Below, piece by piece: positions 4,192 to 62,256 of a DNA stretch of 64,000 bases. Each line of letters opens with the position of its first letter. The stretch's first letter is position 1. The stretch spans positions 726,240 through 790,239 of the forward strand of contig JAIELV010000001.1 in assembly GCA_019752595.1 (NCBI GenBank), written 5' to 3'. The notes under the pieces are model-generated. The model saw only the letters and a list, made by a program, of their open reading frames with translations, was not told where the DNA came from and made no database searches. The stretch comes from Patescibacteria group bacterium (lineage in GTDB: Bacteria; Patescibacteriota; Minisyncoccia; Phycocordibacterales; Phycocordibacteraceae). Both the position numbers and the translations under genes were made by a program.

Positions 4192-5148
4192 CTATACAGC
4201 CATTTTCGCTTTGATTGTAGGGTGCGATTGGTAGTTTTCGAGGTCTATATCCTCCATCTTAAAGTCGTCTATATTTTTCACGTTCGGGTTTAATTTCAAG
4301 GTTGGCAGTGGGTAGGGGGTGCGCGCAAGCTGTTCTTTTACCGCGTCAAAATGGTCATGATAAATGTGTACGTCGCCCAAGGAGTGTACAAATTCATGCG
4401 CTTTGAGCCCCGTTACTTGCGCGACCATGTGAAGCAATAGGGAATAAGATGCGATGTTAAACGGAACACCAAGAAACACATCGCACGAGCGCTGGTGCAT
4501 GAAGAGCGAAAGTTTTCCTGGTTCACCTTCTTTGTCTGAGGGGTCTACAAAAAACTGAAAGAACATATGGCACGGCGGAAGCGCCATCTCGGAAAGCTCC
4601 CCTGGGTTCCACGCCGACACTATCAATCTTCGGTCGCTCGGGTCTTTTTTTATTTTTTCAATCACTTCAGCAAGTTGATCAACGGTCGCTTGCCCTGAGG
4701 GATTCGAAGGGTCTGTGGGCTTTCGCCATGCGCGCCACTGCACTCCGTACACGCGACCCAAATCTCCCGGGAATTTTGCTTTCGGAGTCCAGTAGGGGGC
4801 TTCGGAGTTGTCTGTCCAAATAGTTCTCTCTGAGCCGTTTAATTCTTTCAATCGGTTGTCGTCTCCTGAGCCTTCAATGAACCACAAGAGTTCAGATTTC
4901 ACTGCTTTAAACGCCAGCTTCTTTGTGGTCATTGCGGGAAAACCGTCCGTCATATTGAAACGCATCTGAAGCCCAAACATCGCACGCGTCTTACCATTTC
5001 TGGTGTCGCGGTCGGCACCCTCGGCCATTACTTTTTTCAGAAGTGAGAGGTACTGTTGCATGAGTGTATGATATAGCCGCTTTACTCTTCGGCAAAATGC
5101 GGTTATAACGTCCTCCTGGTATGGGCTCCGAAAACAATGTTGCAGCAA
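4192..5148 (-). CDS. thyA: thymidylate synthase ThyA
   Basis: Active-site region LPPCHMFFQFFV, GVQWRAW and DLGRVYG motifs. Confidence 0.9.
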   Translation of the reverse strand: MLQHCFRSPYQEDVITAFCRRVKRLYHTLMQQYLSLLKKVMAEGADRDTRNGKTRAMFGLQMRFNMTDGFPAMTTKKLAFKAVKSELLWFIEGSGDDNRLKELNGSERTIWTDNSEAPYWTPKAKFPGDLGRVYGVQWRAWRKPTDPSNPSGQATVDQLAEVIEKIKKDPSDRRLIVSAWNPGELSEMALPPCHMFFQFFVDPSDKEGEPGKLSLFMHQRSCDVFLGVPFNIASYSLLLHMVAQVTGLKAHEFVHSLGDVHIYHDHFDAVKEQLARTPYPLPTLKLNPNVKNIDDFKMEDIDLENYQSHPTIKAKMAV

Positions 5149-5419: not shown

Positions 5420-6034
5420 ATGAAAGGGAAATTCATCGTTTTTGAAGGCGGGGAAGGTTCGGGCAAGGATACGCACATTGAGCTCCTGAAGCCGAAGTTT
5501 CCTGATGCGGTGTTTACTCGTGAGCCTGGGGGCACGAAATTCGGCATGGAAATGCGCCGCCTTTTACTTGAATGGCGAGAGAGCGAGATTGATGCACTGA
5601 CGGAACTTTTTTTCTTTTCAGGCGCGCGCGTGCAGTCGATGAAAGAAATCGTGTCGCCCGCGCTCGCCTCGGGGAAGACAGTTTTTTCTAACCGATGGGC
5701 GCTCGGCACAATCGCGTATCAGGTGTACGGGCGAGACCGCTTAGATCTCCTTGATATTGCTCAGGTTGCTATCAAGAAAGCTGTAGGGGATGACATGCCT
5801 GACTTGACGATATATCTCGACATAGACCCCGAGGTCGGAATCAAACGCGTGGAGTCGAGGAACGATGGTAAGACACGCTTTGACGCAGAATCTGTGGCAT
5901 TCCACACTCGCGTACGCGATGGCTTCCTGAAGCATCTTCCCGATTTCGGCAAAAATGCCGTTATCGATACGTCAGGGCCGATAGAGGATGTCCAAACACA
6001 GATAGAAAAAGCACTCACTTCCGCAGGTATTTAA
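5420..6034 (+). CDS. tmk: thymidylate kinase
   Basis: P-loop FIVFEGGEGSGKDT, REPGGT..., DRL motif. Confidence 0.85.
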   Translation: MKGKFIVFEGGEGSGKDTHIELLKPKFPDAVFTREPGGTKFGMEMRRLLLEWRESEIDALTELFFFSGARVQSMKEIVSPALASGKTVFSNRWALGTIAYQVYGRDRLDLLDIAQVAIKKAVGDDMPDLTIYLDIDPEVGIKRVESRNDGKTRFDAESVAFHTRVRDGFLKHLPDFGKNAVIDTSGPIEDVQTQIEKALTSAGI

Positions 6035-6110: not shown

Positions 6111-6178
6111 TCAGCTCTCGGGTTATCCACGGGGACTGCTTTTAGACAAGTCTTCTTTGGCCGCGCTATACTTGCCAG

Positions 6179-7444
6179 ATGAAAATCCCATTTATCGACG
6201 CTCAAGACAGTGAAGTTTCAAAAGCGATCCACGGCGAAGAGGAGCGGGAGAAAGAGGGACTAGAACTCATTCCGTCAGAAAACTACGTCTCAAAAGCAGT
6301 CCACGAGGCTCTTGGCTCCGTGATGACCAATAAATATTCGGAAGGGTATCCTGGTGCGCGCTACTACGGCGGGCAGATGTACACCGATATCGTCGAAAAC
6401 ATCGCTCGCGACCGCGCCAAGCAACTTTTCAATTGTAAATTCGCAAATGTGCAGCCACTTTCTGGTGCTCCTGCGAACGTTGCTACGTATTTCGCGCTTC
6501 TTCAGCCTGGCGACACTGTGCTTGGCATGGACCTCTCACACGGAGGCCATCTCACGCACGGGCATCCCGTGACGTACCTGACCAAGATTTTCAAATTCGT
6601 CCGTTACAAGATGAAAGATACAGCAACGGGTGAGATTGATTACGATGAAATGCTCGAAGTCGCGAAACGCGAGAAACCAAAAATTGTTCTCGCAGGCTAT
6701 TCTGCATATTCGCGCGAATTGGATTACGCAAAAATTTCCGCAATAGCAAAAGAAGTGGGGGCGGTTTCAATGATGGACGCCGCGCACATTGCAGGCTTGA
6801 TTGCTGGCAAGGCACATAAAAATCCTTTTGATTTTGGTATTGATATTGTCACGACCACAACACACAAAACACTTCGTGGCCCGCGCGGAGGAATGATTCT
6901 CACTCGTGACAATGAAGAGATCGCAAAGAAGATCGACAAATCGATTTTCCCTGGTTTTCAGGGCGGCCCGCACATGCACCAGATAGCTGGGAAAGCTGTC
7001 GCGTTTGGTGAAGCGCTTCACCCGTCGTTTCAGGTATACGCAACGCAGATTTTGAAGAATGCGAAAGCAATGGAAGCAGTCTTTGCGAGAGAAAACGTTC
7101 GCATGATTGCTGGTGGTACTTCAAACCACTTGATTCTTGCCGATGTGTTCGGCTCTCTGGGTGTGACTGGCGCTGATGCAGAGCGAGTGTTGGATGAAGT
7201 GGGTATTACCCTGAACAAAAATGCGATTGCAGATGATGTCAGAAAACCGATGGACCCGTCAGGAATCCGTTTCGGTACGCCTGCAATCACTACTCGTAAA
7301 TTTACTGAAAAAGAATGCGCGCGTGTCGCAGAGTTGATGATTGAGACACTGAGAAACAAAGACAACACAGATATGAAAACCAAAATTCGTGCAGAGATAA
7401 AAGAAATGGCTCTGGCATTTCCAATCCCTGAATCTTTTGTATAA
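6179..7444 (+). CDS. glyA: serine hydroxymethyltransferase
   Basis: LIPSENYVS..., SEGYPGARYYGG, PLP-lysine region TTTTHKTLRGPRGG. Confidence 0.92.
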   Translation: MKIPFIDAQDSEVSKAIHGEEEREKEGLELIPSENYVSKAVHEALGSVMTNKYSEGYPGARYYGGQMYTDIVENIARDRAKQLFNCKFANVQPLSGAPANVATYFALLQPGDTVLGMDLSHGGHLTHGHPVTYLTKIFKFVRYKMKDTATGEIDYDEMLEVAKREKPKIVLAGYSAYSRELDYAKISAIAKEVGAVSMMDAAHIAGLIAGKAHKNPFDFGIDIVTTTTHKTLRGPRGGMILTRDNEEIAKKIDKSIFPGFQGGPHMHQIAGKAVAFGEALHPSFQVYATQILKNAKAMEAVFARENVRMIAGGTSNHLILADVFGSLGVTGADAERVLDEVGITLNKNAIADDVRKPMDPSGIRFGTPAITTRKFTEKECARVAELMIETLRNKDNTDMKTKIRAEIKEMALAFPIPESFV

Positions 7445-7452
7445 TCCTGCGG

Positions 7453-7884
7453 ATGTACGAAATTAAGCGTGCAAAAAAACGGCACTGGGGCCGTATCAAG
7501 ACGCTTATAGAAGCAAATCCTGAGACGCTTGAACAAAAGTACTTGCCGAAGAGGAAAGAATTTTTCGTGGCGCTCGGTCCTCGTCCTGAAGAAGGAGGGA
7601 GGCGGCCTGTGGTGGGATGCGTGGCGCTTGAGGCTCATCATAAACAACGATTGGGGGAGTTACGTTCTCTTGCAGTTACAGAAGAAGAGCGAGGGAACGG
7701 TTTGGCGCGCGTGCTCATTGAACACACCCTCCTCCATGCTCGAAAACGGGGAGTGAAGCAGGTGCTGACGATCACGGGAAGTCCGGATATGTTTCGGAAA
7801 TTTGGTTTTGACTTTTTCCGCGCGGACGAAAAGTACGCTCTCATAAATGATTTACTTGCAAAAGAAGACGATCGCTCTTCATAA
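7453..7884 (+). CDS. GNAT family N-acetyltransferase
   Basis: Acetyl-CoA motif A RGNGLARVL and GNAT-like core. Confidence 0.7.
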   Translation: MYEIKRAKKRHWGRIKTLIEANPETLEQKYLPKRKEFFVALGPRPEEGGRRPVVGCVALEAHHKQRLGELRSLAVTEEERGNGLARVLIEHTLLHARKRGVKQVLTITGSPDMFRKFGFDFFRADEKYALINDLLAKEDDRSS

Positions 7885-7904: not shown

Positions 7905-7932
7905 TTGACGCGCTGCTTTCGGTGCCTATAAT
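7905..7932 (+). promoter_or_regulatory. sigma70-type promoter TTGACG-16-TATAAT
   Basis: TTGACG 7905-7910, TATAAT 7927-7932; ATG of a 16-aa ORF 9 nt downstream. Confidence 0.5.
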
Positions 7933-7941
7933 AGAAATTAT

Positions 7942-7992
7942 ATGAAGCACGTCGCTTCCATCATCGTTCGTCGTCGCGGCCTCAGAGTTTGA
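7942..7992 (+). CDS. 16-aa micro-ORF MKHVASIIVRRRGLRV with three consecutive Arg codons; candidate leader peptide upstream of the Zn-finger ORF and argS
   Basis: promoter directly upstream, intrinsic terminator directly downstream. Confidence 0.35.
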   Translation: MKHVASIIVRRRGLRV

Positions 7993-8031
7993 GGTTGTCT
8001 GCGAGCATTGGTTCACTAAAACGAATACTTC

Positions 8032-8060
8032 CAAACGACCTCAAACGAGGTCGTTTTTGT
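8032..8060 (+). terminator. rho-independent terminator (CGACCTC-aaac-GAGGTCG + TTTTT)
   Basis: read directly. Confidence 0.6.
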
Positions 8061-8081
8061 TTATATCTCTAACCAAAAAAC

Positions 8082-8429
8082 ATGGAAAAGAAATTAAAGG
8101 ATATTTTTTCTCACGGAGAAGGAACCTCAACCTGCTTTCACTGCGGTAAGGCGGTACCGTGGGGTTCAACAGAATCAATTGAGTTCGGTTCGCATTTTTC
8201 TTTGTGGCCTTTCCACGAAAATTGTGTACCACTATATATCGGGCATCTTTTAGAACATATGGAACTTTCGGAGGGGAGCGCACTCTCAAACTTCAAGGAA
8301 AATCTTGAACGAACTTATGCGGCCTGTCTGTTCTGTGGAGGCCTGGTTCTGAAAGAAAGAGCAAAATCTATAGACGGAGGGTATGTGCACGTCACGGCAA
8401 AATGCCTAAAATATTTCCATATCCGCTAA
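8082..8429 (+). CDS. hypothetical Cys-rich (zinc-finger-like) protein, 115 aa
   Basis: CFHCGK...C...CLFCGG...C pattern; overlaps upstream of argS. Confidence 0.4.
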   Translation: MEKKLKDIFSHGEGTSTCFHCGKAVPWGSTESIEFGSHFSLWPFHENCVPLYIGHLLEHMELSEGSALSNFKENLERTYAACLFCGGLVLKERAKSIDGGYVHVTAKCLKYFHIR

Positions 8430-8455
8430 TGCGGACTGGTTGTATAGTGTCGCTT

Positions 8456-36640: not shown

Positions 36641-37138
36641 GTGGCAATTACAAAAGCAAAAAAAGTAACACTGCTTGCAAACATTACCGAGGCTCTCGCA
36701 AAGACTGTCTCGGGTGTGTTTGTTAGTTTCTCTGGTATTACGGTTGCGGAAGTGAACCAGCTTCGCAACGCGCTCAGAGCGGAAGGTGTGAAATACACTG
36801 TCGTCAAAAAGACACTCCTTAAGAAAGCACTCACCGAAAAAGGCGTTTCAGGCGACATGCCCGAACTTCCTGGTGAAATTGCATTCGTCTACCTCAAGGA
36901 AGGCGAGGATATCACCGCACCAGCGCGTGGGATCCACGGATTTATCAAGAAACTCCAGGGCAAAATTGCTCTCGTTGGAGGTCTTCTTGAAGGCAAATAC
37001 CTCTCGGAAGGGGAGGCAAAAGGAATCGCAACGATTCCGCCGATTCCAGTACTCCGCGGCATGTTTGCAAACATCATCAATTCGCCGATTCAGCGTTTGG
37101 CCATCGGTTTGAATGAAGTAGCTAAAGTTAAAAATTAA
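36641..37138 (+). CDS. rplJ: 50S ribosomal protein L10 (GTG start)
   Basis: AITKAKKVTLLANITEALAKTVSGVFVSFSGITVAEVNQLR. Confidence 0.9.
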   Translation: MAITKAKKVTLLANITEALAKTVSGVFVSFSGITVAEVNQLRNALRAEGVKYTVVKKTLLKKALTEKGVSGDMPELPGEIAFVYLKEGEDITAPARGIHGFIKKLQGKIALVGGLLEGKYLSEGEAKGIATIPPIPVLRGMFANIINSPIQRLAIGLNEVAKVKN

Positions 37139-37164
37139 GATAAAGGGTTTAGGTACTAGCTTCT

Positions 37165-37190
37165 AGCTTTTAAAGCTAACCCCTAGCACC
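37165..37190. repeat. AGCTTTTAAAGCT-containing motif, copy X (rplJ-rplL spacer)
   Basis: TAGCTTTTAAAGCTAACCCCTAGCACC; compare 43655-43680 and 40602-40678. Confidence 0.55.
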
Positions 37191-37210
37191 TATCACCTAA
37201 AAACTAAATT

Positions 37211-37573
37211 ATGACATCAGAACAAATCATTGAAGCGGTAGAGAAAATGACCGTGCTCGAACTCAACACACTCGTCAAAGCAATTGAAGAGAAGTGGGGC
37301 GTTTCTGCTACGGCAGTAGCAGCAGCAGGCCCAGCAGCAGCAGGCGAAGCGGCTGAAGAGAAATCTTCATACAACGTGAAACTTGTTTCAGCAGGTGACG
37401 CGAAAATCGGCGTCATTAAAGTCGTCAAAGAGGCTCTTGCTCTCGGCTTGAAAGAAGCAAAAGACTTGGTAGATGCAGCTCCGTCAGTCCTCAAAGAAGG
37501 AATGAAGAAGGAGGATGCAAACAAGCTCAAAGAAGCTATCGAAGCAGCTGGAGGAAAAGTCGAGTTGGCATAA
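37211..37573 (+). CDS. rplL: 50S ribosomal protein L7/L12
   Basis: [33 protein letters not shown]...Ala-rich hinge...[18 protein letters not shown]. Confidence 0.92.
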
Positions 37574-37627: not shown

Positions 37628-37655
37628 TTGACTCTGTCTGAAACAGGCAGATAAT
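37628..37655 (+). promoter_or_regulatory. sigma70-type promoter TTGACT-16-GATAAT, 6 nt upstream of ATG 37662 (leaderless)
   Basis: read directly. Confidence 0.45.
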
Positions 37656-37661
37656 GCCGAC

Positions 37662-37847
37662 ATGGCAAAAGAAACAAAAGAACCCACGATCCCAGAACTT
37701 CGCGAAAAAGGTGTTGCCCTCGCTCGCGCACGTAGAATTAAAACCCCTACCGCAGACGCTCTTTTAGATTTCCAAGTTTGGAACGGATGGGCTAATGAGC
37801 GTCGCGCTCAGATCCGTGCAGCAGAGGAAGCTGAAAGATCAGAATAA
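37662..37847 (+). CDS. small hypothetical protein (61 aa) in its own promoter-terminator unit
   Basis: flanked by promoter 37628-37655 and terminator 37857-37887. Confidence 0.4.
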   Translation: MAKETKEPTIPELREKGVALARARRIKTPTADALLDFQVWNGWANERRAQIRAAEEAERSE

Positions 37848-37856
37848 CTAGCCCTC

Positions 37857-37887
37857 AAAAAGCCCCGAAATGGGCTTTTTGTTTTTT
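37857..37887 (+). terminator. rho-independent terminator
   Basis: AGCCC-cgaaa-TGGGCT + TTTTTGTTTTTT. Confidence 0.65.
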
Positions 37888-37914
37888 GAGACGAAGGCGC
37901 GTACAATACCTCTA

Positions 37915-38481
37915 ATGTTTAAAGAAATCTCCCGCCTGTTCCAGAATCCCGCCCGCATCAAAGTTCTCAAGTTTTTCACTCTTCAGCCCAATATAAAAAC
38001 GACCGCAAAAGACGTCGCTCAAACGATAGGAGGAGGTTCGACAAAAAATGAAACGGAAATTCGCGCACTGACCCGTGCGGGTGTTCTTGTCGGGAAGCGA
38101 CAGGGGAAACAAACACTCTACTCTCTTTCTCCGAACTTTCCGCACACAGAAGCCGTCCGCTCTTTCCTCGATGACATAACCCAGCCGAACGACAAATCAC
38201 TCTCGGATGCGTTTCGTGGAGTTCCTGGTATCACGCTTCTTGTCGCGAGCGGAGCATTAGTTCGCGAACATCGTGCGGCTATTGATTTACTTGTTGTTAC
38301 GCGACGCCCGAAAGATGCACGCATTGAGCGCGCGGTCAGACAGGTGGAGGCAAAGGCATCACTTCCCATTCGCTATGCGGTTTTTGATACCCGTGAATAT
38401 GAAGAGAGAAGGGTGGCGCGCGACAGGCTTCTAAGAGATATTTTCGAGTTCGAACACATGGTTATTGTGGGGCGCGCCTAA
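37915..38481 (+). CDS. putative transcriptional regulator with N-terminal winged HTH (ArsR-like)
   Basis: MFKEISRLFQNPARIKVLKFF...; TACAAT -10 box 7 nt upstream of ATG 37915. ORF-track start 37870 lies inside the terminator. Confidence 0.45.
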   Translation: MFKEISRLFQNPARIKVLKFFTLQPNIKTTAKDVAQTIGGGSTKNETEIRALTRAGVLVGKRQGKQTLYSLSPNFPHTEAVRSFLDDITQPNDKSLSDAFRGVPGITLLVASGALVREHRAAIDLLVVTRRPKDARIERAVRQVEAKASLPIRYAVFDTREYEERRVARDRLLRDIFEFEHMVIVGRA

Positions 38482-39431: not shown

Positions 39432-39465
39432 TTGACAAACTCAAGATAAAAAGTATTCTTCGCTC

Positions 39466-39777
39466 ATGCTAGAGAAATCCCATCTCACCTCTTCTGCGAC
39501 TGGTATGGCATCCGTTCGTCTCGCTCAGCTTTTTGAAGAATATGACGCGGTAGAAGGCCTCGCTATCTCTGAAGAGGAGAAGACTACACGCAGGGCATTA
39601 AATCTATCAGAGCGTAGTGCGTTGCTTGCAGGCTTCTCGTTTGCCAGTATAAAAAAGATAGACCGCCTCGCGCATGACCATCGGAAAAGAACGTGGCGAA
39701 ACCAAGATGGAGGTATACGCAGAGATCTTTTGGAACGATTTCATGCTCACTATCGAAGACCGTTTCGCGGGTTTTGA
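39466..39777 (+). CDS. hypothetical protein, 103 aa; TTGACA-type promoter with ATG ~7 nt after the -10 box
   Basis: TTGACA 39432-39437; weak -10 TATTCT; leaderless arrangement. Confidence 0.3.
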   Translation: MLEKSHLTSSATGMASVRLAQLFEEYDAVEGLAISEEEKTTRRALNLSERSALLAGFSFASIKKIDRLAHDHRKRTWRNQDGGIRRDLLERFHAHYRRPFRGF

Positions 39778-40678: not shown

Positions 40679-42735
40679 GAACGTTATGTGGTTTTCAAGC
40701 TTCCTCGCGGAAGTTTGAAGGGTGTATGGTGGATGCCTTGACTTTAAAGAGCGATGAAGGACGCAGCACGTCTGCGAAAAGTTTCGGGGAGCTGACGAGC
40801 AAGCTTCGATCCGAAAATATCCGAATGGGGAAACCCCTCGTACTCCGTACGAGATCTGTGGAGTGTTCTGCAGATGCGCACCTCGGGAAGTGAAACATCT
40901 CAGTACCGAGAGGAAAAGAAACCAACAGTACATCTCGGTCTCTGCACAAATTTATTTTGTACAGGGACCGGGATTCTGGAATTTCCCTAGTAGCGGCGAG
41001 CGAAAAGGAATCAGCCCAAACCGTATCAGCAATGGTGCGGGGTTGTAAGGCGATGGCGTTCCAATTTATTGGAAGAGAAGTTATCAAAAATATTGGTAGA
41101 AGAATCTGCTGGGAAGCAGAACCCTAGTGGGTAATAGTCCCGTATTCGAAATCAATATTTCTTCTTTGCCATCGATCTTGAGTAATCCGAGACACGAATA
41201 GCTTGGATGAATCCGCCGGAACTAACCGGCAAGGCTAAATATCTTTAAAGATCGATAGTGAACCAGTACCGTGAGGGAAAGGTGAAAAGCAGCCCGGAAG
41301 GGCAGTGAAATAGTTCTGAAACCATACATCTACAAAGAGTCGAAGAGGTCGCAAGACCTCGACGGCGTGCCTATTGAAGAATGAGCCGGCGAGTTTACGC
41401 ACACGGCAGGCTAAGGGGCGATCCCCCGGAGCCGTAGGGAAACCGAGTGTGAATAGCGCGTTAGTCGCGTGCGTAAGACCCGAAGCCAGGTGAGCTTGTC
41501 ATGAGCAGGGTGAACCACTCCGAAAGGAGTGGGGAGGCCCGAACCCGTTGGTCGTACAACGCCTTGGGATGACTTGTGACAAGGAGTGAAAAGCTTATCG
41601 AACCTGGTAATAGCTGGTTCTCTCCGAAATAGCTTTTGGGCTAGCGTCTGACGTTCCCTCTGGGGGTAGAGCACTGGAAGGGTCAAATAGGGAGCAATCT
41701 CGTTGACCCTATCAAACTCCGAATACCAGAGATTAAAAGTCAGGCAGTTAGACTACGGGCGCTAAGGTCCGTTAGTCGAGAAGGGAAGAGCCTAGATCTC
41801 AAGTTAAGGTCCCTAAATATGCGCTAAGTGCATCACAAGGAAGTTGAAGTTCTATGACAGTGAGGATGTTGGCTTAGAAGCAGCCACCATTTAAAGAAAG
41901 CGTAACAGCTCACTCATCGAGAACTTCTGCGCCGAAGATAATCGGGGCTAAGCGCGTTACCGAAACTGAGGAATTACAGAAGATCCGTCTTCTGTATTTG
42001 GTAGGAGAGCGTTCCAAACCGCAATGAAGGATAAGGGGTGACCCATTCTGGAGCGTTTGGAAGTGAGAATGCCGGCACAAGTAACCACAATGTGGGTGAG
42101 AACCCCACACGCCGAAAGAATGAGGTTTCCTTCGCACTGATGATCAGCGAAGGGTTAGTCGGGCCTAAGGGAATGGCGAAAGCCGCACCCGATGGACACA
42201 CGGTTAATATTCCGTGACTTAGTATGTATGCGATGGAGAGACGGAGTGCTGTATCTACTGCCCGTTACTGGATTTGGGTTCAATGCATGAGGATGTGACT
42301 TCAGGAAAATCCGGGTCACGCCAGTCCGAGTGTAGTGGAAATGTCCTGGTTCGCCAGGATAAATAGTAGAGAGCGCGCTTCCCAGAAAATCTTCTAAGCT
42401 TCAGTACATACAATCCGTACCGCAAACCGACACAGGTATTCAGGTCGAGTAGACCAAGGCGAACGAGTGAGAGGTCCTCAAGGAACTCGGCAAAATAGCG
42501 GCCGTAACTTTGGAATAAGGCCTGCCCTCTCTTAATTGAGGGGGCCGCAGCGAAAGATTCCCAACCGACTGTTTATCAAAAACACAGCTCCCTGCGAACT
42601 CGTAAGAGGATGTATAGGGGGTGACACCTGACCAATGCCAGAAGGTCAACTATGGGTGGTGCGTGGTAGCAATACTATGTGCTGACCTATATAAGCCCTG
42701 GTCAATGTCGGCGATAACTATAATCGTCCTAAGGT

Positions 42736-42955
42736 TTCCGTCTTGAGTAATCGAGGCGGGAAGGATTGGGACGATTGTAGAGATAAACAGAAATAAAAAT
42801 ACACTAAGTTACCTTACATGCAGTAATGCATGCGTAATCCAATCATGACCAACAAGAGACCAAATGTCATGCTCCTTCAATTTTGCAAAAGGTTTATCCT
42901 GAGCGAAGTCGAAGGATGAAGATAGAGTCCTTCGTACAATAAATAGGAATCGAAG
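42736..42955 (+). other. ~220-nt insertion in 23S between CCUAAGGU and AGCGUAAUUCC (E. coli ~1931; helix 69-71 region); intron or intervening sequence
   Basis: exon junction reconstructs the universally conserved CCUAAGGU|AGCGAAAUUCC; insert ends in G. Confidence 0.65.
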
Positions 42956-43583
42956 AGCGTAATTCCTTGTCTGGTAAGTTCAGACGTGCACGAATGGTGT
43001 AACGAGTTGGGAACTGTCTCGAGGACTTGCTCGGTGAAAATACAGTACCGGTGAAGATGCCGGTTACTCATAGTTAGACGAAAAGACCCCAGAAGCTTTA
43101 CTGTAGCTTCGTATTGGGATTATGATTCATCTGCGTAGAATAGATGGGAGAGGTTGAAGCATGGGTTTTGGCTCATGTGGACTCGTCAGTGCAATACCAT
43201 CCTTATGCGTCGTAATTTCTAACCTCTGGAAAACACCAGGGAGACAGTGCGTGGTAGGCAGTTTGAGTGGGGCGCTCTCCTCCAAAAAAGTAACGGAGGA
43301 GTCTACAAAGGTCAGCTAGGCGCGAATGGAAACCGTGCCGGTCGTGTAATGGCACAAGCTGGCTTAACTGCGAGACGTGAATGTCGAGCAGACACGAAAG
43401 TGGAGCATAGTGAACCGCTGATTCGCATTAGATGCGGTCAAAGATTATCTGATAAAAGTTACTCTGGGGATAACAGGCTAGTTCCGCCTAAGCGTCCATA
43501 GCGACGGCGGAGTTCGGCACCTCGATGTCGGCTCACCACATCCCGGAGCTGGAGAAGGTTCCAAGGGTATGGCTGTTCGCCAT

Positions 43584-43615
<32 letters not shown>

Positions 43616-44037
43616 TTAATTAGAGAAGGTGTTAGGGACTAGGTGCCAGGTGTTAGCTTTAAAGCTAAAACCTAGTACCTGGGAGCTAGAACCTTGTCTG
43701 TTAAGCAGTCTGAACCCGATTGAGAGAGAAAGTTGTTCAAATGAATATCAGGTTTTTTCGTCACAAAAAGAAACAGAACCAATCATCACGGCGGCGCATG
43801 TACGAAATTACATGACGCACCGATCAACATATATCGGGAAAATCCTGCAAAGGACAATTCCGAGGGAAGCACGGCAGCTTGCTAACGCAACTGCACTTGG
43901 ATTTTCTAGAACGGTTTACCGTTAAGAAAATCTCGGCGCCCGTAGAGACTGCACGTTGATTACCCGAAACGATTTGTAAAAGAATTGGAGGGTAAAGATA
44001 CAGTCCGATACTTTCGGTAACGAAAGCAAACACATTG
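43616..44037 (+). other. ~422-nt insertion in 23S between GGGUUCAGACCGU and CGUGAGACAGGUUGGUC (E. coli ~2590-2593, canonical group I intron site); intron or intervening sequence
   Basis: exon junction reconstructs conserved AGAACGU|CGUGAGACAG; insert ends in G; contains a 98-aa ORF without recognisable homing-endonuclease motifs. Confidence 0.65.
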
Positions 44038-44180
44038 CGTGAGACAGGTTGGTCTCCTATCTACTATGAGCGTTGATATTTGAGGAGAGTCGTCCTTAGT
44101 ACGAGAGGACCGGGATGAACTGACCTCTGGTCTACCTGCTGTTCCGCCAGGAGCATTGCAGGGTAGCTATGTCGGGAAGA

Positions 44181-44211
<31 letters not shown>

Positions 44212-44437
44212 TCCCTCCAAGATTAGATATCGTTAAGGCCCGTGAGAGATGATCACGTTGATAGGCTCAAGGTGTACATGTAGCAATACATTCAGCCGAA
44301 GAGTACTAATTCGCCGATTTTTGCGGGGAAGCATGAAAATCCATAACCCTGTTTTGTGCTCGATGTTCTCTATGTGAATGAAGTCTTAAATTGAAATAAT
44401 AAAATCTTCGTATTGAATGTTTTGTTTTGGTGGTTTG

Positions 44438-44531
44438 TCAGTGGGGCCACACCCGTTCTCATTCCGAACACGGCAGTTAAGCCCACCAGAGCCGATGGTA
44501 CTCGTAAGGGGAGAGTAGGCGACCGCCAGAA
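44438..44531 (+). rRNA. rrf: 5S ribosomal RNA
   Basis: CCGAACACGGCAGTTAAGC...GATGGTACTCG...GAGAGTAGG core. Confidence 0.85.
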
Positions 44532-52578: not shown

Positions 52579-52856
52579 GTATTGACAAGCCCACTTCTCA
52601 CTGCATTGTTGTTTTATGTCAGTAGATCGTCGCACCTCTAGATACGTTGGTCGCCTCGTGAGTGGTAGCCGCGTAAACGTCGCTGCGTTTTTTGACAGCC
52701 CTGAGTGTCAGTTTTGGGTACGACAGTCGCTTCTCGGTTCGGCTTCCTCTCGGACTGAGAGTAAGGGTTCTGGTAAACCCGTAAAGGGCGGGGGGTGGAG
52801 AGTCCACTCGTTCGGGTGACTAAGTTTCCTATTTGCATATAGCCTCGTTGCGATAA

Positions 52857-54173
52857 GTGCCCCAAAAGGGCATACTGTTCCAAATGACGATGGTACGTAT
52901 TTGGGCGGTTATTCTCCTTTTGGCAGGAGCAGGAATAGGGTGGGTTGCCACAGGTGTGTATGGCGCTCCAAATATACCTTTCAAATTTGGTCTCGATTTA
53001 GCGGGTGGTACACACCTTCTCTATAAAGCTGATGTATCAAAAGTGCAGGGTGATCCACAGGACGCCATGGATTCATTGCGAGAAGTGGTGGAGCGTCGGG
53101 TGAACATCTTCGGTGTCTCAGAGCCATTGGTTCAGACTGAGAAAGGAGGAGTGAGTGGTAATGAACACCGACTGGTGGTCGAACTTCCAGGAGTTTCAAA
53201 TCTTTCAGATGCAGTGCGCGCGATCGGCTCAACTCCAGTTCTTGAATTTAAATTACAGCAATCATTCGGCACTTCCTCAGTCACGTATATCGAAACAGGT
53301 CTTACGGGCGCACTTCTTTCTCGCGCAACGCTTGAGTTTGCAAGTACGGCATCAGGAGGTGTTTCAAATGAGCCTGTTATCGTCATTAACTTCAATACCG
53401 AAGGTGCGGAACTTTTCAAAAAAATAACAACGGAAAATATTGGGCAACCCCTCGCCATTTTCCTCGACGGCGCGCCGATTTCAACTCCTGTTATTCAAGA
53501 GGCAATCCCGAACGGCACAGCGACAATCACAGGTCGATTCACTCCTGAGGAAGCAAAGCAGTTGGTGCGCGATTTGAACTTTGGCGCGTTGCCTGTGCCC
53601 GTTGAGCTCGTTTCCTCACAATCTATTGGTCCATCGTTGGGGCAAACAGCGCTCGAACAAAGCGTTATGGCAGGTATGTGGGGTTTTGTGCTAGTCGCGG
53701 TGTTTTTGGTTCTTTGGTATCGCTTACCAGGGTTGATTGCTGTCGTCGCGCTCCTCATGTATGTCGTGATTTCGCTTTTAATTTTCAAATTAATTCCAGT
53801 CACCTTGACGGTTGCGGGATTGGCAGCGTTCATTCTTTCAATCGGTATGGCGGTTGACGCAAACATTCTTATTTTCGAGCGCACGAAAGAAGAGCTTGAG
53901 AAAGGAAAAGATTTACCCGAAGCAATTAAAGAGGGGTTCCACCGTGCGTGGTCCTCAATCCGCGATTCAAACCTCTCATCTATCATCACAGGCGTCATTC
54001 TATTCTGGTTTGGTGGCACGGCAGTGATTAAAGGTTTCGCGCTCGTGTTCGTTATCGGTGTTTTGATTTCTATGTTCACTGCAACAACCGTCACGCGCAC
54101 GTTCCTTCTCGCGCTTGGCCTTGCGCACTCGAAAGCAGCCCACTTCTTATTCGGTCACGGTCTTAGTAAATAA
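52857..54173 (+). CDS. secD: protein translocase subunit SecD (likely start at Met 52887)
   Basis: N-terminal TM, periplasmic domain, C-terminal 6-TM block (FGLDLAGGTHLLY...). Confidence 0.85.
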   Translation: MPQKGILFQMTMVRIWAVILLLAGAGIGWVATGVYGAPNIPFKFGLDLAGGTHLLYKADVSKVQGDPQDAMDSLREVVERRVNIFGVSEPLVQTEKGGVSGNEHRLVVELPGVSNLSDAVRAIGSTPVLEFKLQQSFGTSSVTYIETGLTGALLSRATLEFASTASGGVSNEPVIVINFNTEGAELFKKITTENIGQPLAIFLDGAPISTPVIQEAIPNGTATITGRFTPEEAKQLVRDLNFGALPVPVELVSSQSIGPSLGQTALEQSVMAGMWGFVLVAVFLVLWYRLPGLIAVVALLMYVVISLLIFKLIPVTLTVAGLAAFILSIGMAVDANILIFERTKEELEKGKDLPEAIKEGFHRAWSSIRDSNLSSIITGVILFWFGGTAVIKGFALVFVIGVLISMFTATTVTRTFLLALGLAHSKAAHFLFGHGLSK

Positions 54174-55780: not shown

Positions 55781-55809
55781 TTGACATATAAGCAATAAAA
55801 GTGTATAAT
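55781..55809 (+). promoter_or_regulatory. perfect consensus sigma70 promoter TTGACA-17-TATAAT
   Basis: read directly; ATG 55816 is 6 nt downstream. Confidence 0.6.
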
Positions 55810-55815
55810 ATATAC

Positions 55816-56058
55816 ATGGTAGAAGGAGAGATAAAATTGCTTCCTTTACGGGCTGGCGATGCTCGAATGGAACCGCAGCATTGTAAGGAAAACCTCGGCT
55901 CAAGCGGATGTGTGAAGAAAATTAAAAACGGTCGGTGTCCTACAAATTGTGCGGTCACCAGCGAGTGTGGTGGGTGGCGACCTCGAGACAACGCTTTGCC
56001 GACGTGGGGTGTTTTCAAAGGGAAACTGAATCCTCCTGACAAATCTCGGTCTACGTAA
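55816..56058 (+). CDS. small Cys-rich protein (~80 aa; CX8CX9CX3CX6C)
   Basis: consensus promoter directly upstream; alternative TTG start at 55837 preceded by AAGGAG. Confidence 0.4.
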   Translation: MVEGEIKLLPLRAGDARMEPQHCKENLGSSGCVKKIKNGRCPTNCAVTSECGGWRPRDNALPTWGVFKGKLNPPDKSRST

Positions 56059-57110: not shown

Positions 57111-57413
57111 TTATTTCGATTGGAGTTTTTCTCTTATGACCTGGTTAACCAATGCAAAGTTATCAGATTGAATCTGGCTTAATCCCGTTTCTGTCCTATG
57201 TCCTTGAAACCTGCCCCCCGCGGAGTAGACGGCTACTTTTTGCGGCTTCTGCTGCGCATCAGTAAGGTAATCCCTTATCTCCAGTAATGTTCCGGCAGAA
57301 AAATCCACAACCTCTTCATGAGTGTAGTGCCTAAATCCATAAAAATAGACCCGCGTTTGTCCGTTCGGTAAGTCTGTCCTGCCCCCGCTCGCTTCAATAC
57401 CTGCTCTTGGCAT
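57111..57413 (-). CDS. hypothetical protein, 100 aa
   Basis: ORF track. Confidence 0.3.
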   Translation of the reverse strand: MPRAGIEASGGRTDLPNGQTRVYFYGFRHYTHEEVVDFSAGTLLEIRDYLTDAQQKPQKVAVYSAGGRFQGHRTETGLSQIQSDNFALVNQVIREKLQSK

Positions 57414-57515
57414 AAGATTGGATTATGTATCATTTTGACTATTTTGTCAAAAACCCCCTTTATATAAGGAGTTTTTATCCACCCGTTCTCCCCAAAAGGC
57501 CTATTTTGAGGCTAG

Positions 57516-57713: not shown

Positions 57714-57966
57714 GCCCATAGCGATCTTTGACAACTAAATAACCAATCTATCTGTAGCAATCAGATAGGTTGTGTACCACAAGTACAATTAAACCAAGTG
57801 TACTCATTAGACAGCTTAGGAGCGGTCTGATGAGTTAAGTGTTAAGTAACCAGTACCTTCCGGAGATGTAAAAATTTTCGTTAGGGAAAGTAACCAAGAG
57901 CTTTTGTTTTTCTTCTGTTCCGTCTGTTGATTCATGCATCTCAATTGAATGCATGAATCTTTACTG

Positions 57967-59420
57967 AGAGTTTGATCCTAGCTCAGGGTGAATGCTGGCG
58001 GCGTGGATAAGGCATGCAAGTCGAGTGGGTTTAGACCCACGGCAGACGAGGTAGTAACACGTAGGAACGTACCCCGAAGTCTGGGATATTCTGTCGAAAG
58101 ACAGCGCAATACCAGATGGTCTCTAAGGAGTAAAGATTTATCGCTTCGGGAGCGGCCTGCGCAATATCAGCTAGTTGGTGAGGTAATGGCTCACCAAGGC
58201 TATGACGTTTAGGGGAGCTGAGAGGCTGACCCCCACCGATGGAACTGAGATACGGTCCTTACTCCTACGGGAGGCCGCAGTCGAGAATCTTCCGCAATGG
58301 ACGAAAGTCTGACGGAGCGACGCCGCGTGGTGGATGAAGTCCCTCTGGGACGTAAACACCTTTTATAGGGGATGAAGTTTTGACAGTACCCTAAGAATAA
58401 GGGGCTCCTAACTCTGTGCCAGCAGGAGCGGTAATACAGAGGCCCCAAGCATTACCCGGAATCACTGGGCGTAAAGGGTGCGTAGGTGGCGTGATTAGTC
58501 CTTCTTTAAATTCTCCGGGCTCAACCCGGAGACTCGGAGGGAAACGGTCATGCTGGAGGGTGTACGAGGTGTGTAGAACTCTAGGTGTAGGGGTGAAATC
58601 CGTTGATATCTAGGGGAATACCGAATGCGAAGGCAGCACACTGGGACATTCCTGACACTGAGGCACGAAAGCGTGGGTAGCGAAAAGGATTAGATACCCT
58701 TGTAGTCCACGCCCTAAACTATGTTCTCTGGCTTTGAGGAGTATCGACCCTCTTCGAGGCGAAGCTAACGCGTTAAGAGAACCGCCTGGGTAGTACGATC
58801 GCAAGATTAAAACTCAAAGGAATAGACGGGAACTCGCACAAGTAGTGGATCATGTGGCTTAATTCGTAGGTAAGCGAAGAACCTTACCAAGACTTGAAAC
58901 CTAGCTGCACGGCCTCCGAAAGGAGATCAGCCTTCGAGGGTGCTAGGCAGGTGGTGCATGGTCGTCGTCAGTTCGTGGCTTGAGCTGTTCCCTTAAGTGG
59001 GGAAACGAACGCAACCCCCGTTGCCTGTTTTAAATGTCAGGCGAGACTGCTCCCTCACGGGAGAGGAAGGTGGGGATGACGCCAGATCAGCATGCCCCTC
59101 TGATGTCTTGGGCTGCACACGTGATACAATGGCAACAACAAAGAGACGCAAGACGGTAACGTGGAGCAAATCTCAAAATGTTGCCTCAGTACGGATTGAG
59201 GTCTGCAACCCGACCTCATGAAGCTGGAATTACTAGTAATCGTGGGTCAGCCATACCACGGTGAATACGTTCTCGAGTTTTGTACTCACCGCCCATCAAC
59301 TCAAGGGAGCCGGGAATACCCGACGCTCGCGTTTATCGCGGTCCACGGTAAGTTCGGTGACAGGGAGTAAGTTGTAACAAGGCACGGGTAGCGGAAGCTG
59401 CTCGTGGAACAATTCCATGA
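57967..59420 (+). rRNA. rrs: 16S ribosomal RNA (~1454 nt), not adjacent to 23S; 3' tail CAAUUCC instead of CACCUCC
   Basis: AGAGTTTGATCCTAGCTCAG 5' end; conserved 515/800/1400 regions; helix 45 GGAA loop; processing stem CTGTTCCGTCTGTT (57917) / AACAGACGGAACAG (59534). Confidence 0.9.
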
Positions 59421-59634
59421 GGAAAAATGTTTCGCTTCGGCGAAATTGATAGTGTCGATTGTCTCTTCTTCTGGAGACATGGTAATGATGTACAACCATA
59501 AATGACATCCGGTACGCAGATTGCCGAAACTGCAACAGACGGAACAGAATAAAGATTGAAGCTCAAAAATTTGGTTCAGTGTCACTTGTGATTTTTTGCC
59601 CCATACCGCACGCCCTCGTGCGGTCTTTGTATAT

Positions 59635-59662
59635 TTGACTTACTGTTTCAAAGTGGTATAAT
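59635..59662 (+). promoter_or_regulatory. sigma70-type promoter TTGACT-16-TATAAT, 7 nt upstream of ATG 59670
   Basis: read directly. Confidence 0.55.
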
Positions 59663-59669
59663 ATAAAAA

Positions 59670-60023
59670 ATGGCTAATGCAGCAGAAAAACGAATATTTT
59701 CCTATCCCGATGGAGATCGCATGTGCGCATCTGGCCAGCGTCGCGCTGCGTTAACCGCGCTTGAACTCACACTCCGCGGAGCTGAAAAAGTGAAGGAGAG
59801 AATACTAAAGCGCGCGCTCATCGGCGAGAAAATGGTGCGAAACGGAGGCACTGCAAACAAACACGATCTTATTGCGTTTGTCGTTGCTGATTTGGTAACA
59901 GGTGGGGGTGTAGGCGAATTCATCGACCTCGAGACAGGCGATTACACACTCAACACGTTTGATGGGCGTTCATTCTCGAATAACATTTGGAACGACTTAC
60001 TGGCTGGTAAGCACATCTTTTAG
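59670..60023 (+). CDS. hypothetical protein, 117 aa
   Basis: consensus promoter directly upstream. Confidence 0.4.
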   Translation: MANAAEKRIFSYPDGDRMCASGQRRAALTALELTLRGAEKVKERILKRALIGEKMVRNGGTANKHDLIAFVVADLVTGGGVGEFIDLETGDYTLNTFDGRSFSNNIWNDLLAGKHIF

Positions 60024-60088
60024 TAAAAAAAGGTTGACATCGCGTCCACATTTCATACACTAGTGCTTCCACTGAATAATTCACTGAG

Positions 60089-61486
60089 TTGAAAACTACA
60101 CAAAAAAAGAAGGCGAAAAAGAACGGCTTTAAGCGGTTCTGGAAGTTAGGTCGCGAAGAATTCAATACGCAGTTTTTTGATATTACCGAAGGGGGCGACC
60201 TTTTGGTGAAAGAGGGGAATCACACCTACAACGTTCACTCACTTTTGAAAAAATACGGCTCTCCTTTGGAGGTGGTGTTTCCGTTCATTTTGGAATCCCG
60301 CGTTCGAAACCTCATCGACATTTTTGATGCGTACATCAAGCTGTACGGCTACAAAGGTAAGTTCTTCTACCACTACGCGATGAAGGTGAATCAGAACAAA
60401 GAGTTCGTCCTACCGGTTGTTTCCGAAGGCGGGCATTTTGACGTGGCATCTGTGAACGAACTATGGCTCGTGAAGAGGATGCTTGAGCAGAATCGCTTTA
60501 GCCCAAAAATCCGCGTAACCTGCAACGGCCCGAAAACAGAAGCGTACATCGCGCTTATTGAAGAATTGCGCGCAAAGGGGTTGACCATCATTCCGATTAT
60601 TGAGGACCATAATGAATTGGAGCGTTTCAAAAATTTCAAAGGTGAGACGGGCATTCGTTTGAATATGAACGTCCGTGTGCAATCGCACTGGGACAAGCGC
60701 TTCAACCGCTACGGCTTCCGCGAAGACGAAATTTTGAAGCTCGGCAAAATCAGAAACCTCTCTGTCTTGCACTACCACATCTCTTCCCAGATTGAGAAAG
60801 TAGAGGGTCTTATTGTTCCCTTGAAACGCGCCCTCTACATCTACGAAAAACTTCGCGAGAAGAATCCAAACTTGGACACCATCGACATGGGTGGCGGCGC
60901 AGGTATTCCGTATGAAAAGAAAGGGAAGTTCTATACGGGCAAGTCTGCCATCAACCGCATAGTGCGAACTGCAAAAACGTACTGTGAGAAATCAGGTATA
61001 AAGCACCCGAATCTCATTGTGGAGTGGGGGCGTTTCGTAGCAGCACCTGCACAGCTCACTCTGTACAAAATCATTTCAGAGAAAACCGTTTCCGAAGAAG
61101 GGAAGCGAAAGTGGTACATCATCGACGGGTCTTTCATGAACGACCTCTTGGACACGTGGGCGCTGAAACAAAAGTGGCACGTGACACCAGTCAACAACAT
61201 GAAGACGCGCAAGCTTCAGCGTGTGTGGTTTGCAGGCTCTTCCTGCGACTCTGACGACAAATACACAGCGGGAGGCGGGGATATTTCCATGCCGCGCCTT
61301 GAGGACTTGGAAAATGGCGACAGCCAGTTCGTAGCGTTCTACGACACAGGCGCGTACCAAGACCCATTGGCGTCGCACCATTGTTTATTGTCATCCCCTG
61401 CAAAAATCATCTGTCAGGACGGCGAGATAAAGGTTGCCCGTAAGCGTGAGACGAGCGAGGAGGTAGGGAAGCAGTTTGGTTGGTAG
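60089..61486 (+). CDS. speA: PLP-dependent arginine decarboxylase-like enzyme (SpeA-like, fold III Orn/DAP/Arg decarboxylase family), compact 465 aa
   Basis: SPLEVVFPFILESRVRNLIDIF parallels SpeA PLLIRFPQILQHRVRSIN; YAMKVNQN (PLP-Lys region); C-terminal beta-barrel domain. Confidence 0.6.
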   Translation: MKTTQKKKAKKNGFKRFWKLGREEFNTQFFDITEGGDLLVKEGNHTYNVHSLLKKYGSPLEVVFPFILESRVRNLIDIFDAYIKLYGYKGKFFYHYAMKVNQNKEFVLPVVSEGGHFDVASVNELWLVKRMLEQNRFSPKIRVTCNGPKTEAYIALIEELRAKGLTIIPIIEDHNELERFKNFKGETGIRLNMNVRVQSHWDKRFNRYGFREDEILKLGKIRNLSVLHYHISSQIEKVEGLIVPLKRALYIYEKLREKNPNLDTIDMGGGAGIPYEKKGKFYTGKSAINRIVRTAKTYCEKSGIKHPNLIVEWGRFVAAPAQLTLYKIISEKTVSEEGKRKWYIIDGSFMNDLLDTWALKQKWHVTPVNNMKTRKLQRVWFAGSSCDSDDKYTAGGGDISMPRLEDLENGDSQFVAFYDTGAYQDPLASHHCLLSSPAKIICQDGEIKVARKRETSEEVGKQFGW

Positions 61487-61593: not shown

Positions 61594-62256
61594 ATGGCAA
61601 ATCTAAGAAAACTCAATTGGTTTGCGTTATCCGCGCTTCACAACGCAGTTCGACTGCATGGTGATGCAATCTATCTTTACCAAAACCAACGCTACCCGTC
61701 GGCATTTCTACTATCAGTTCTTTCTCAAGAAGAAATCGGGAAAGCATTGATGATAAGTAACTATATTTTTTCAAACTCTGAAGGGGGTATCCCTTCAGAA
61801 TATGAAACTGAATGGCTCAAGCTTTTATATAAACACCCGCATAAACAAGCAGTATTTCTCACTGGGGCTTTTGACTTAATTTTAAAAAGAAATTGGGGGA
61901 TTCAGGGCAGCGTATTCGATGGAGCTCTTGAAACCAAAAAACAGAACGCCACATACGTAAGCTTACAAAAAAGAGCTAAGAAAATAGATATAAAAGGGAA
62001 GGTTTTACAGCCAAATATCAAGCGTGCAACCGCCGAAAAACAAATAACTCTGATAAATGATTACTTGCTTAACGCCAGCGCAGGGCAGATTACCAAAACT
62101 TTTGGATTGGAAATCGATGACATAAATCGTGTTTTAAACAGGAAGCTTCTAAAAGAATTGAAAAGAGATTGGAAAAAGCGGGGCGCTCACATTAAAAAAC
62201 GGCTCCAGATGTTCAAAGAATTCTCAAAAAAATACAATATTCCGCTAGAGATATAA
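61594..62256 (+). CDS. hypothetical protein, possibly AbiV/HEPN-like (abortive-infection family)
   Basis: N-terminal helical pattern ALSALHNAVRLHGDAIYLYQNQRYPSAFLLSVLSQEEIGKAL resembles AbiV-family N-termini; AT-rich gene. Confidence 0.3.
   Translation: MANLRKLNWFALSALHNAVRLHGDAIYLYQNQRYPSAFLLSVLSQEEIGKALMISNYIFSNSEGGIPSEYETEWLKLLYKHPHKQAVFLTGAFDLILKRNWGIQGSVFDGALETKKQNATYVSLQKRAKKIDIKGKVLQPNIKRATAEKQITLINDYLLNASAGQITKTFGLEIDDINRVLNRKLLKELKRDWKKRGAHIKKRLQMFKEFSKKYNIPLEI

Follow-up and report, generated by a model that had tools for sequence, protein, structure and literature searches.

Start codons adjacent to sigma70-type promoters point to leaderless initiation in a Patescibacteria lineage without an anti-Shine-Dalgarno sequence

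We analyzed a stretch of 64,000 nt from a Patescibacteria group bacterium (assembly GCA_019752595.1, contig JAIELV010000001.1, positions 726,240 to 790,239), hereafter called the window, in which a promoter at 55781–55809 that matches the sigma70 consensus at 12 of 12 positions lies directly ahead of the ATG of a small open reading frame (ORF). This promoter is predicted to drive a gene for a conserved, cysteine-rich protein of 80 aa via a leaderless mRNA. The same layout of a −10 box followed within a few nucleotides by a start codon recurs throughout the window and in related loci, and the 16S rRNA encoded in the window lacks the core of the anti-Shine-Dalgarno (anti-SD) sequence. Based on this signature, from which the start positions are deduced, we consider it likely that the promoter-adjacent genes are leaderless. 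According to the proposed mechanism, genuine sigma70-type promoters with a TTGACA-like −35 box and/or a TGn-extended −10 box would begin the transcript with the A of the ATG or 0–3 nt away from it, this A lying 7–10 nt past the last base of the −10 box. The resulting mRNAs would carry neither a 5′ leader nor an SD sequence, and ribosomes would initiate directly on the 5′-terminal AUG. Operon-internal genes without the motif would instead make use of A-rich, G-poor spacers or be coupled to the stop codon ahead of them.

The first-pass annotation had proposed that leaderless initiation is a major mode in this organism. The proposal is supported by the enrichment of the promoter-to-ATG spacing, by promoter hallmarks, by the N-termini of the encoded proteins, by conservation of the layout in orthologues and by the absence of both anti-SD and SD sequences; judged by motif counts, leaderless initiation would serve at least about a third of the genes.

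Promoter-to-ATG spacing in the window and in related loci

A scan of both strands of the window for sigma70-like −35/−10 pairs, scored out of 12, yielded 13 strong matches (at least 10/12), nine of which have an ATG 6–9 nt past the −10 box (this distance is called the gap below). All five matches of at least 11/12 are among these nine. In 100 dinucleotide-preserving shuffles, 8.75 ± 2.6 promoters reached 10/12, and the mean number with an ATG at gap 6–9 was 0.41 (maximum 2), so that the comparison with chance suggested by the first-pass annotation, run here on the window, sets nine observed sites against 0.41. The seven −35/−10 pairs with an ATG 6–9 nt downstream that had been listed in it are all present; its count of “at least seven” is correct for these sites and too low as a total, as about 26 window starts share the layout and ~19 candidates thus come on top. 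These include secD, thyA, tmk and argS as well as the genes for serine hydroxymethyltransferase (SHMT) and a GNAT protein (Table 1). In a gene-centred test, in which every long ORF was assigned its first ATG by a rule blind to promoters, TANNNT was found at gap 5–9 in front of 21 of 61 starts, compared to 98 of 1734 other ATGs (5.7%; binomial P = 8e-12).

For the conserved families, alignments indicate that the promoter-adjacent ATG is the real translation start. Position 1 of the respective Pfam profile aligns to residue 2 of the thyA product and to residue 8 of thymidylate kinase (tmk), and position 2 to residue 7 of SHMT and residue 3 of dCTP deaminase (dcd). The protein start MTMVRIW of secD resembles MTAVRVW in the related locus L002, where the gene is preceded by the same CATACT-7-ATG arrangement, and in a second relative (L010) TATCCT is found at gap 7. 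Homologue alignments also fit the promoter-adjacent starts of secD, argS and the ORFs beginning at 55816 and 59670. In another related locus, L012, argS has GTG instead of ATG at the leaderless position (5985–6004; TATAGT, 7 nt).

Leadered genes occur as well. A gene at 60089 resembling Orn/Arg decarboxylases seemingly starts at a TTG, which is conserved in the related locus L093 (~645–702); its TTGACA-16-TACACT promoter lies 27 nt ahead of this TTG (60034–60091), giving a leadered transcript with a non-ATG start. For the UMP-kinase-like gene, the orthologues in L002 and L008 have their −10 box ~22 nt upstream and are likewise leadered.

A metagenome scan with arginyl-tRNA synthetase (ArgRS) provided 80 related loci at 47–62% identity, many of them from groundwater; the nearest genomic relatives are metagenome-assembled genomes (MAGs) of the candidate phyla radiation (CPR) labelled Saccharibacteria or Paceibacterota. 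Across the 80 loci, TANNNT is present at gap 5–9 in 182 of 537 genes (34%) versus 8.5% of all ATGs. A total of 79 genes have the motif at gap 6, while most gaps of 10 nt or more are represented by ~10–20, and the distribution peaks at 6–7 nt. This is the distance between a −10 box and position +1, as would be expected of a promoter. Alignment of the relatives on the −10 box revealed a T at −3 and a G at −2, i.e., a TGn extended −10, in 39% of the hits compared to ~6% expected, together with a weak enrichment of TT(G) at the −35 position. When the relatives were scanned starting from the motif, 44 of 154 TGnTAnAAT sites were followed by an ATG at gap 5–9, again with a peak at gap 6. SD-like motifs are found before 10% of the relatives' genes, against a background of 9%. 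A good −10 box (TANNNT) lies 6–9 nt before the ATG in 32 of 61 ArgRS orthologues, and many of the others are positioned closely behind an upstream gene. Four CPR loci that were identified via SecF show the same pattern.

At some sites the surrounding sequence bears on the transcript start itself. Terminators are located directly upstream of the promoter of the 59670 ORF (59605–59624) and, as judged by eye, of the promoter of the 37915 ORF (hairpin at ~37853–37885), which makes read-through leaders unlikely there. In both Mycobacterium tuberculosis and Deinococcus deserti, a Pribnow box 6–8 nt from the start is the mark of leaderless mRNAs that have been mapped by differential RNA sequencing (dRNA-seq; PMC6028130). 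It is because the same signature was validated in these two species that we infer both transcription start sites and translation from the AUG in the present genome.

Ribosomal RNA genes and the Shine-Dalgarno system

The 3′ tail of the 16S rRNA (Table 1) reads AAUUCC in place of the consensus ACCUCC. The CCUCC anti-SD core is gone, and SD-guided initiation would therefore be unavailable. In agreement with this, SD-like tetramers, defined as GGAG, GAGG or AGGA at −18 to −4, precede only one of 53 window genes compared to 9.6% of all ATGs. In a control locus from Selenomonas, 43% of the genes carry SD-like motifs and none of 14 has the −10 motif. A re-tuned SD sequence complementary to the altered tail was also considered and rejected, since 5-mers of CATGGAATTGTTCC are found before 1 of 54 starts versus a background of 10%.

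Loss of the anti-SD motif has been described for a subgroup of Parcubacteria that overlaps with the group lacking ribosomal protein uL1; in such bacteria, the formation of SD helices was judged to be improbable (Tsurumaki et al. 2022, RNA 28:1041, PMC9297842). The same study leaves the alternative mode of initiation unstated and makes no mention of leaderless mRNAs. It also reports that the tip of helix IV is missing from the 5S rRNA in most Parcubacteria. The window shares both features with these bacteria, namely a 16S 3′ end without CCTCCT and a 5S rRNA without the helix IV tip: its 5S rRNA (44426–44531) is 106 nt long, and the tip of helix IV/loop D comprises 4 nt instead of 15. Moreover, rplK (L11, 1446–1862) is followed by a 91-aa ORF and a CofE-like gene (to 2901) and not by rplA (L1), and rplJ–rplL (36641–37573) lie 35 kb away. 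An rplK neighborhood without rplA in the 64-kb window, which is part of an 831-kb contig, fits the uL1-lacking CPR group but is no proof of membership.

The 23S and 5S rRNA genes form a pair (40706–44531), and the solitary 16S rRNA gene (57960–59419) lies 13 kb downstream on the same strand, so that the rRNA genes are unlinked. No tRNA genes were found anywhere in the window. The 23S match (40706–44327) spans 3622 nt compared to the 2925 positions of the model, indicative of ~700 nt of inserted sequence, and no convincing protein ORF was seen inside the match.

Small proteins and leader peptides downstream of the promoters

The ORF behind the promoter at 55781 has four homologues in the database (P0001–P0004) and one in locus L002, with identities of 46–89%. 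The family is characterized by five invariant cysteines and a CPTNC...CGGW motif, and a ratio of nonsynonymous to synonymous substitution rates (dN/dS) of 0.06–0.14, at saturated synonymous sites, indicates that the 80-codon ORF is a real gene. In a DNA alignment of six upstream regions (the focal one and five relatives), no change is seen in the TTTGACA sequence, in GTATAATA or in the ATG, and the spacer as well as the DNA ahead of the −35 box have diverged. The gap measures 6 nt in five of the sequences and 8 nt in one.

Two other interpretations of this locus were examined and discarded. A downstream in-frame TTG (55837), which is preceded by GGAGAG, might have represented the true start, but neither element is kept in the homologues and the organism has no anti-SD sequence; the lack of conservation shows that the pair is not a hidden SD-led start. 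The transcript might also have been a non-coding RNA, but the region has no Rfam match at E-values up to 5 and no excess of RNA structure (z = +0.8), and the protein is conserved at a dN/dS of ~0.1. Searches of Pfam and NCBIfam gave no match for the 80-aa protein, and an AlphaFold2 model built from five sequences was unusable with a confidence score (pLDDT) of 38.8.

The first-pass annotation had also taken the promoters as support for several small ORFs that would otherwise be dismissed, and here the outcome differs from site to site. For the 80-aa and the 117-aa ORF (starts at 55816 and 59670) the support is borne out by homologue families. The 117-aa ORF has 20 homologues of similar length, most of them aligned at or near the N-terminus and the closest from the N-terminus or within ~10 residues of it, and TTGACT-16/17-(TG)TATAAT-7-ATG is retained in the relatives L093 and L096/L097, whose proteins are 85% and 55% identical. 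It also holds for the ORFs at 37662 and 37915 on grounds of gene-like codon usage. The former has a log-likelihood ratio of 0.29 per codon, which is inside the range of confident genes; the latter shows a weak match to an ArsR-type winged helix-turn-helix (wHTH) domain from residue 4, and an upstream in-frame ATG at 37870 lies, as judged by eye, inside the terminator hairpin. The ORF at 39466 is a different case. This ORF has neutral codon usage and, in a search of 5.8 billion proteins, is matched solely by the 100% identical NCBI entry K2P56_04590, a hypothetical protein of a Patescibacteria group bacterium, which has the same annotated start, leaving the promoter as the single argument for it. 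The ORF at 7942 is conserved but has the appearance of a regulatory leader peptide rather than a stand-alone protein, and the 19-aa ORF at 11155 is probably of the same type. No homologues of the ORFs at 11155, 37662, 39466 and 57413 (minus strand) were present among the fetched relative loci.

The element starting at 7942 is a probable attenuator of the leader-peptide type that would sense the level of Arg-tRNA and be translated from a leaderless mRNA upstream of argS. Its short ORF (7942–7992) contains three consecutive Arg codons, CGT CGT CGC (7969–7977), which form part of the 5′ arm of hairpin 1:2. An alternative pairing is possible between region 2 and the 5′ arm of the terminator, and the fold is more stable than expected (z = −4.2). 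Tandem codons, mutually exclusive hairpins and an intrinsic terminator, the sequence hallmarks of leader-peptide attenuators, are thus all found at this site. The same element occurs in L012 (ArgRS 62% identical) at 5669–5785, directly upstream of argS and 84% identical to the window. The promoter reads TTGACA-17-TACCAT-7-ATG in L012, where the leader peptide MKHLASVIVRRRGLSV keeps 13 of 16 residues; the Arg codons have changed synonymously from CGT CGT CGC to CGC CGC CGC, and three matching, compensatory substitutions preserve the terminator and anti-terminator pairings. An Arg-rich leader ORF near argS was detected in L012 only among the relatives, so that the element rests on two distinct sequences.

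Like the trpL, hisL and pheM–pheST attenuators, the 7942 element combines a short ORF with tandem codons (RRR), alternative hairpins (1:2, 2:3 and 3:4) and a terminator that ends in a U tail, and like them it is located upstream of a cognate gene, here that of the tRNA synthetase (argS). It differs from these classical attenuators in that the predicted mRNA encoding the leader peptide is itself leaderless, that an unrelated 115-aa ORF separates the element from argS, and that argS has its own −10 box.

The region at 11155 may represent a second attenuator. It gives weak Rfam matches to Thr and Phe leaders (E ~0.3–0.5) and is followed on its 3′ side by a 78-aa ORF with a CxxCxGxG zinc finger (11288–11524), which weakly matches anti-TRAP-like proteins; ileS follows 1 kb further downstream.

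The window has a G+C content of ~47–48% and consists of housekeeping genes, including nusG, rplK, thyA, tmk, SHMT, argS, ileS, secDF and rplJL, among others. The isoleucyl-tRNA synthetase (12248–15739, 1163 aa) carries a histidine-phosphatase domain (His_Phos_1, residues 498–663) inserted in its catalytic domain. A protein with an AbiV-type HEPN domain (61594–62256) is a candidate for an abortive-infection defence gene and has a leaderless-type start of its own (TAAAAT-7-ATG). Finally, the sequence CTAAC(T/C)AAAAAA(T/C) recurs immediately in front of three small ORFs, whose ATGs lie at 8082, 11661 and 11946. CTAA and TAAC are 6–7-fold over-represented before non-leaderless starts, part of which may stem from upstream stop codons.

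Table 1. Coordinates of the promoters, ORFs and RNA elements of the window; the layout is given as −35 box, spacer length, −10 box, gap and start codon
Feature	Position	Strand	Layout or description
Focal promoter	55781–55818	+	−35 TTGACA 55781–55786, 17-nt spacer, −10 TATAAT 55804–55809, 6 nt, ATG 55816–55818
Gene for 80-aa Cys-rich small protein	55816–56058	+	predicted translation from leaderless mRNA
Promoter of 7942 ORF	7905–7944	+	TTGACG-16-TATAAT, 9 nt, ATG 7942
16-codon leader ORF MKHVASIIVRRRGLRV with alternative hairpins	7942–8062	+	upstream of 8082 ORF and argS
Hairpins of 7942 element	1:2 ~7976–7998; 2:3 7987–7995 with 8038–8046; terminator 8034–8055		terminator followed by T-run
Promoter of 11155 ORF	11121–11157	+	TTGACA-16-(TG)TACAAT, 6 nt, ATG 11155
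11155 ORF MSGFAVITTIKKTTAKRRG	11155–11214	+	19 codons, Ile/Thr-rich; strong intrinsic terminator 11241–11266
Promoter of 61-aa ORF	37628–37664	+	TTGACT-16-GATAAT, 6 nt, ATG 37662; ORF to 37847
Promoter of 188-aa wHTH-like protein	37879–37917	+	weak −35 TTGTTT, 17 nt, −10 TACAAT 37902–37907, 7 nt, ATG 37915
Promoter of 103-aa orphan ORF	39432–39468	+	TTGACA-16-TATTCT, 6 nt, ATG 39466; ORF to 39777
Promoter of 117-aa ORF	59635–59672	+	TTGACT-16-(TG)TATAAT, 7 nt, ATG 59670; ORF to 60023
SHMT	6143–6181	+	TAGACA-18-TATACT, 6 nt, ATG 6179
GNAT	7418–7455	+	TTTCCA-16-TATAAT, 7 nt, ATG 7453; promoter within 3′ end of SHMT gene
thyA (thymidylate synthase)	5059–5095	−	TTGCCG-16-TATCAT, 6 nt, ATG 5061
100-aa ORF	57411–57450	−	TTGACA-17-CATAAT, 8 nt, ATG 57413
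secD	52848–52886	+	CATACT, 7 nt, ATG 52884
argS	8419–8458	+	own −10 TATAGT, 7 nt, ATG 8456
tmk	5420		further start with the layout
UMP-kinase-like gene	57087	−	further start with the layout
NUDIX	62294		further start with the layout
CTAAC(T/C)AAAAAA(T/C) copies	8065–8084; 11645–11663; 11930–11948		at least two of the three ORFs Cys-rich
16S rRNA 3′ tail GGAACAAUUCCAUG	59406–59419	+	Rfam alignment, small-subunit model positions 1520–1533, consensus GGAUcACCUCCUUu

Alternative readings, known systems and implications

One alternative accepts the promoters as real and regards the transcripts from 7942, 11155 and possibly 39466 as non-coding or purely regulatory RNAs with an incidental ATG. In its favor, the ORFs at 7942 and 11155 are very short (16 and 19 codons) and are followed by terminators, the ORF at 39466 is an orphan of neutral codon usage, and none of the three has a family match. 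However, an incidental ATG is unlikely given that every promoter of at least 11/12 has one at gap 6–9. In addition, the conservation of the 7942 peptide in L012, with its synonymous changes in the Arg codons, fits a translated leader peptide, and the ORFs at 55816 and 59670 are clearly protein-coding. We therefore regard this explanation as unlikely for the three transcripts.

An even less probable alternative, to which we assign little weight, is that TANNNT 6–9 nt before the ATG is no promoter and acts on leadered mRNAs as an AT-rich, SD-independent signal for ribosome recruitment or for an unstructured start region. It draws on tightly packed genes, i.e., those starting at most 15 nt behind a same-strand neighbor: 25% of them carry the motif, and those without it are very rich in A and poor in G upstream (55–60% A and 5–12% G at −9 to −3), suggesting that composition matters for initiation. 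An organism without an anti-SD sequence must also have some other initiation signal. Against this, the strongest sites have TTGACA at 16–18 nt and 28–39% of the hits the TGn extension, both of which are promoter features; the gaps form a sharp peak at 6–7 nt and not a broad AT-rich plateau; some sites are immediately preceded by terminators; and the identical signature was found to be leaderless by dRNA-seq in M. tuberculosis and D. deserti (PMC6028130). As to a promoter or a ribosome-binding site, the motif gives mixed signs: TTGACA-like −35 boxes occur in the window and TGn in 39% of the hits in the relatives, and the frequency is lower in tightly packed genes (25% versus 29–47% in the other classes, P = 0.012), where the motif is nevertheless still enriched. 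The simplest reading of the motif in tightly packed genes is that the 3′ end of the gene ahead harbors a promoter, as in the case of the GNAT start 7453. For those lacking the motif, the A-rich spacers point to SD-independent initiation or translational coupling.

A chance coincidence or annotation artefact of AT-rich intergenic DNA, which could appeal to the looseness of TANNNT (5.7–8.5% of background ATGs at gap 5–9), is practically refuted by the statistics, with 0.41 sites in shuffles versus nine observed, a gene-centred P of ~1e-11 and a peaked gap distribution, as well as by orthologues that keep the architecture and by the Selenomonas control.

Several points weigh against leaderless initiation as the general explanation. 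The transcript starts and N-termini are themselves deduced from sequence, and gene starts were taken from simple ORF rules instead of a trained gene finder. Several sites have gaps of 8–9 nt, which may leave a leader of 1–3 nt. In tightly packed genes the enriched motif retains the gap-6 peak and the TGn element in 28% of cases, and a translational role of the motif is possible there. Furthermore, a scan for strong −35 and −10 pairs in the 80 distant relatives showed no enrichment of ATGs at gap 5–9 (20 of 217). The signal in the distant relatives seems to be carried by extended −10 promoters, and well-defined TTGACA boxes seem to be specific to the window genome and its close relatives. We lean by a small degree towards a broader picture for the clade, in which the SD/anti-SD system would have been lost throughout, leaderless initiation at 5′-terminal AUGs, coupled to transcription, would be a main mode for many genes, from promoters that often lie in the preceding gene, A-rich spacers would serve otherwise, and leader peptides such as that of the putative argS attenuator would be translated in this manner as well.

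Based on its sequence features, the architecture is of a known bacterial leaderless type, that of group C in the GeneMarkS-2 classification, here in a CPR lineage devoid of anti-SD. Group C consists mainly of Actinobacteria and Deinococcus-Thermus, with a predicted leaderless share of ~25–50% (PMC6028130). Common to both are a Pribnow box 6–8 nt from an ATG (occasionally GTG) start, and the absence of SD at such genes, and the leaderless share predicted for group C is of the same order as the share of genes with the motif here. The two differ in lineage, Patescibacteria in our case, and in the loss of the anti-SD together with the absence or depletion of SD motifs across all genes here. Group C taxa still have a canonical anti-SD, and SD sites serve their leadered and internal genes. 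Internal genes of the present lineage resemble group B in their A-rich, G-poor −9 to −3 region and their lack of SD. Bacteroidota, too, still have their anti-SD sequence. In group B (Bacteroidota), one and the same non-SD motif is found ahead of every gene, which excludes a promoter function (PMC6028130), whereas here a promoter-type −10 motif adjoins many starts. In archaeal group D, leaderless transcripts are a major class and the promoter box lies ~26 nt from the start (PMC6028130), in contrast to the bacterial sigma70 −10 box ~6–9 nt from the start observed here.

The present case thus differs from the known type in belonging to a Patescibacteria lineage and in having no SD system at all next to the leaderless architecture; that the anti-SD can be lost had been published before (PMC9297842). 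Our literature search found no paper that ties leaderless genes to CPR, Patescibacteria or Parcubacteria. Leaderless starts are modelled by the gene finder of the NCBI annotation pipeline, and as the NCBI annotation assigns the same leaderless ATG to the ORF at 39466, the pattern may already be implicit in existing annotation.

For MAGs of CPR and Patescibacteria, these findings bear on the annotation of starts, as SD-based prediction would misplace starts and miss small genes in a lineage that is rich in leaderless genes and lacks SD. Promoter adjacency is useful evidence for short ORFs in such genomes, as seen for the 80-aa and the 117-aa families. Leaderless initiation is often regarded as an ancestral mode, and embedded promoters together with leaderless mRNAs fit reduced genomes, which is of interest for genome streamlining and ribosome evolution. 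If true, a leaderless leader-peptide attenuator of argS would represent a compact regulatory device in organisms where few regulators are known. Leaderless initiation offers a concrete and testable answer to how translation starts in Parcubacteria without anti-SD, a question left by Tsurumaki et al. (2022).

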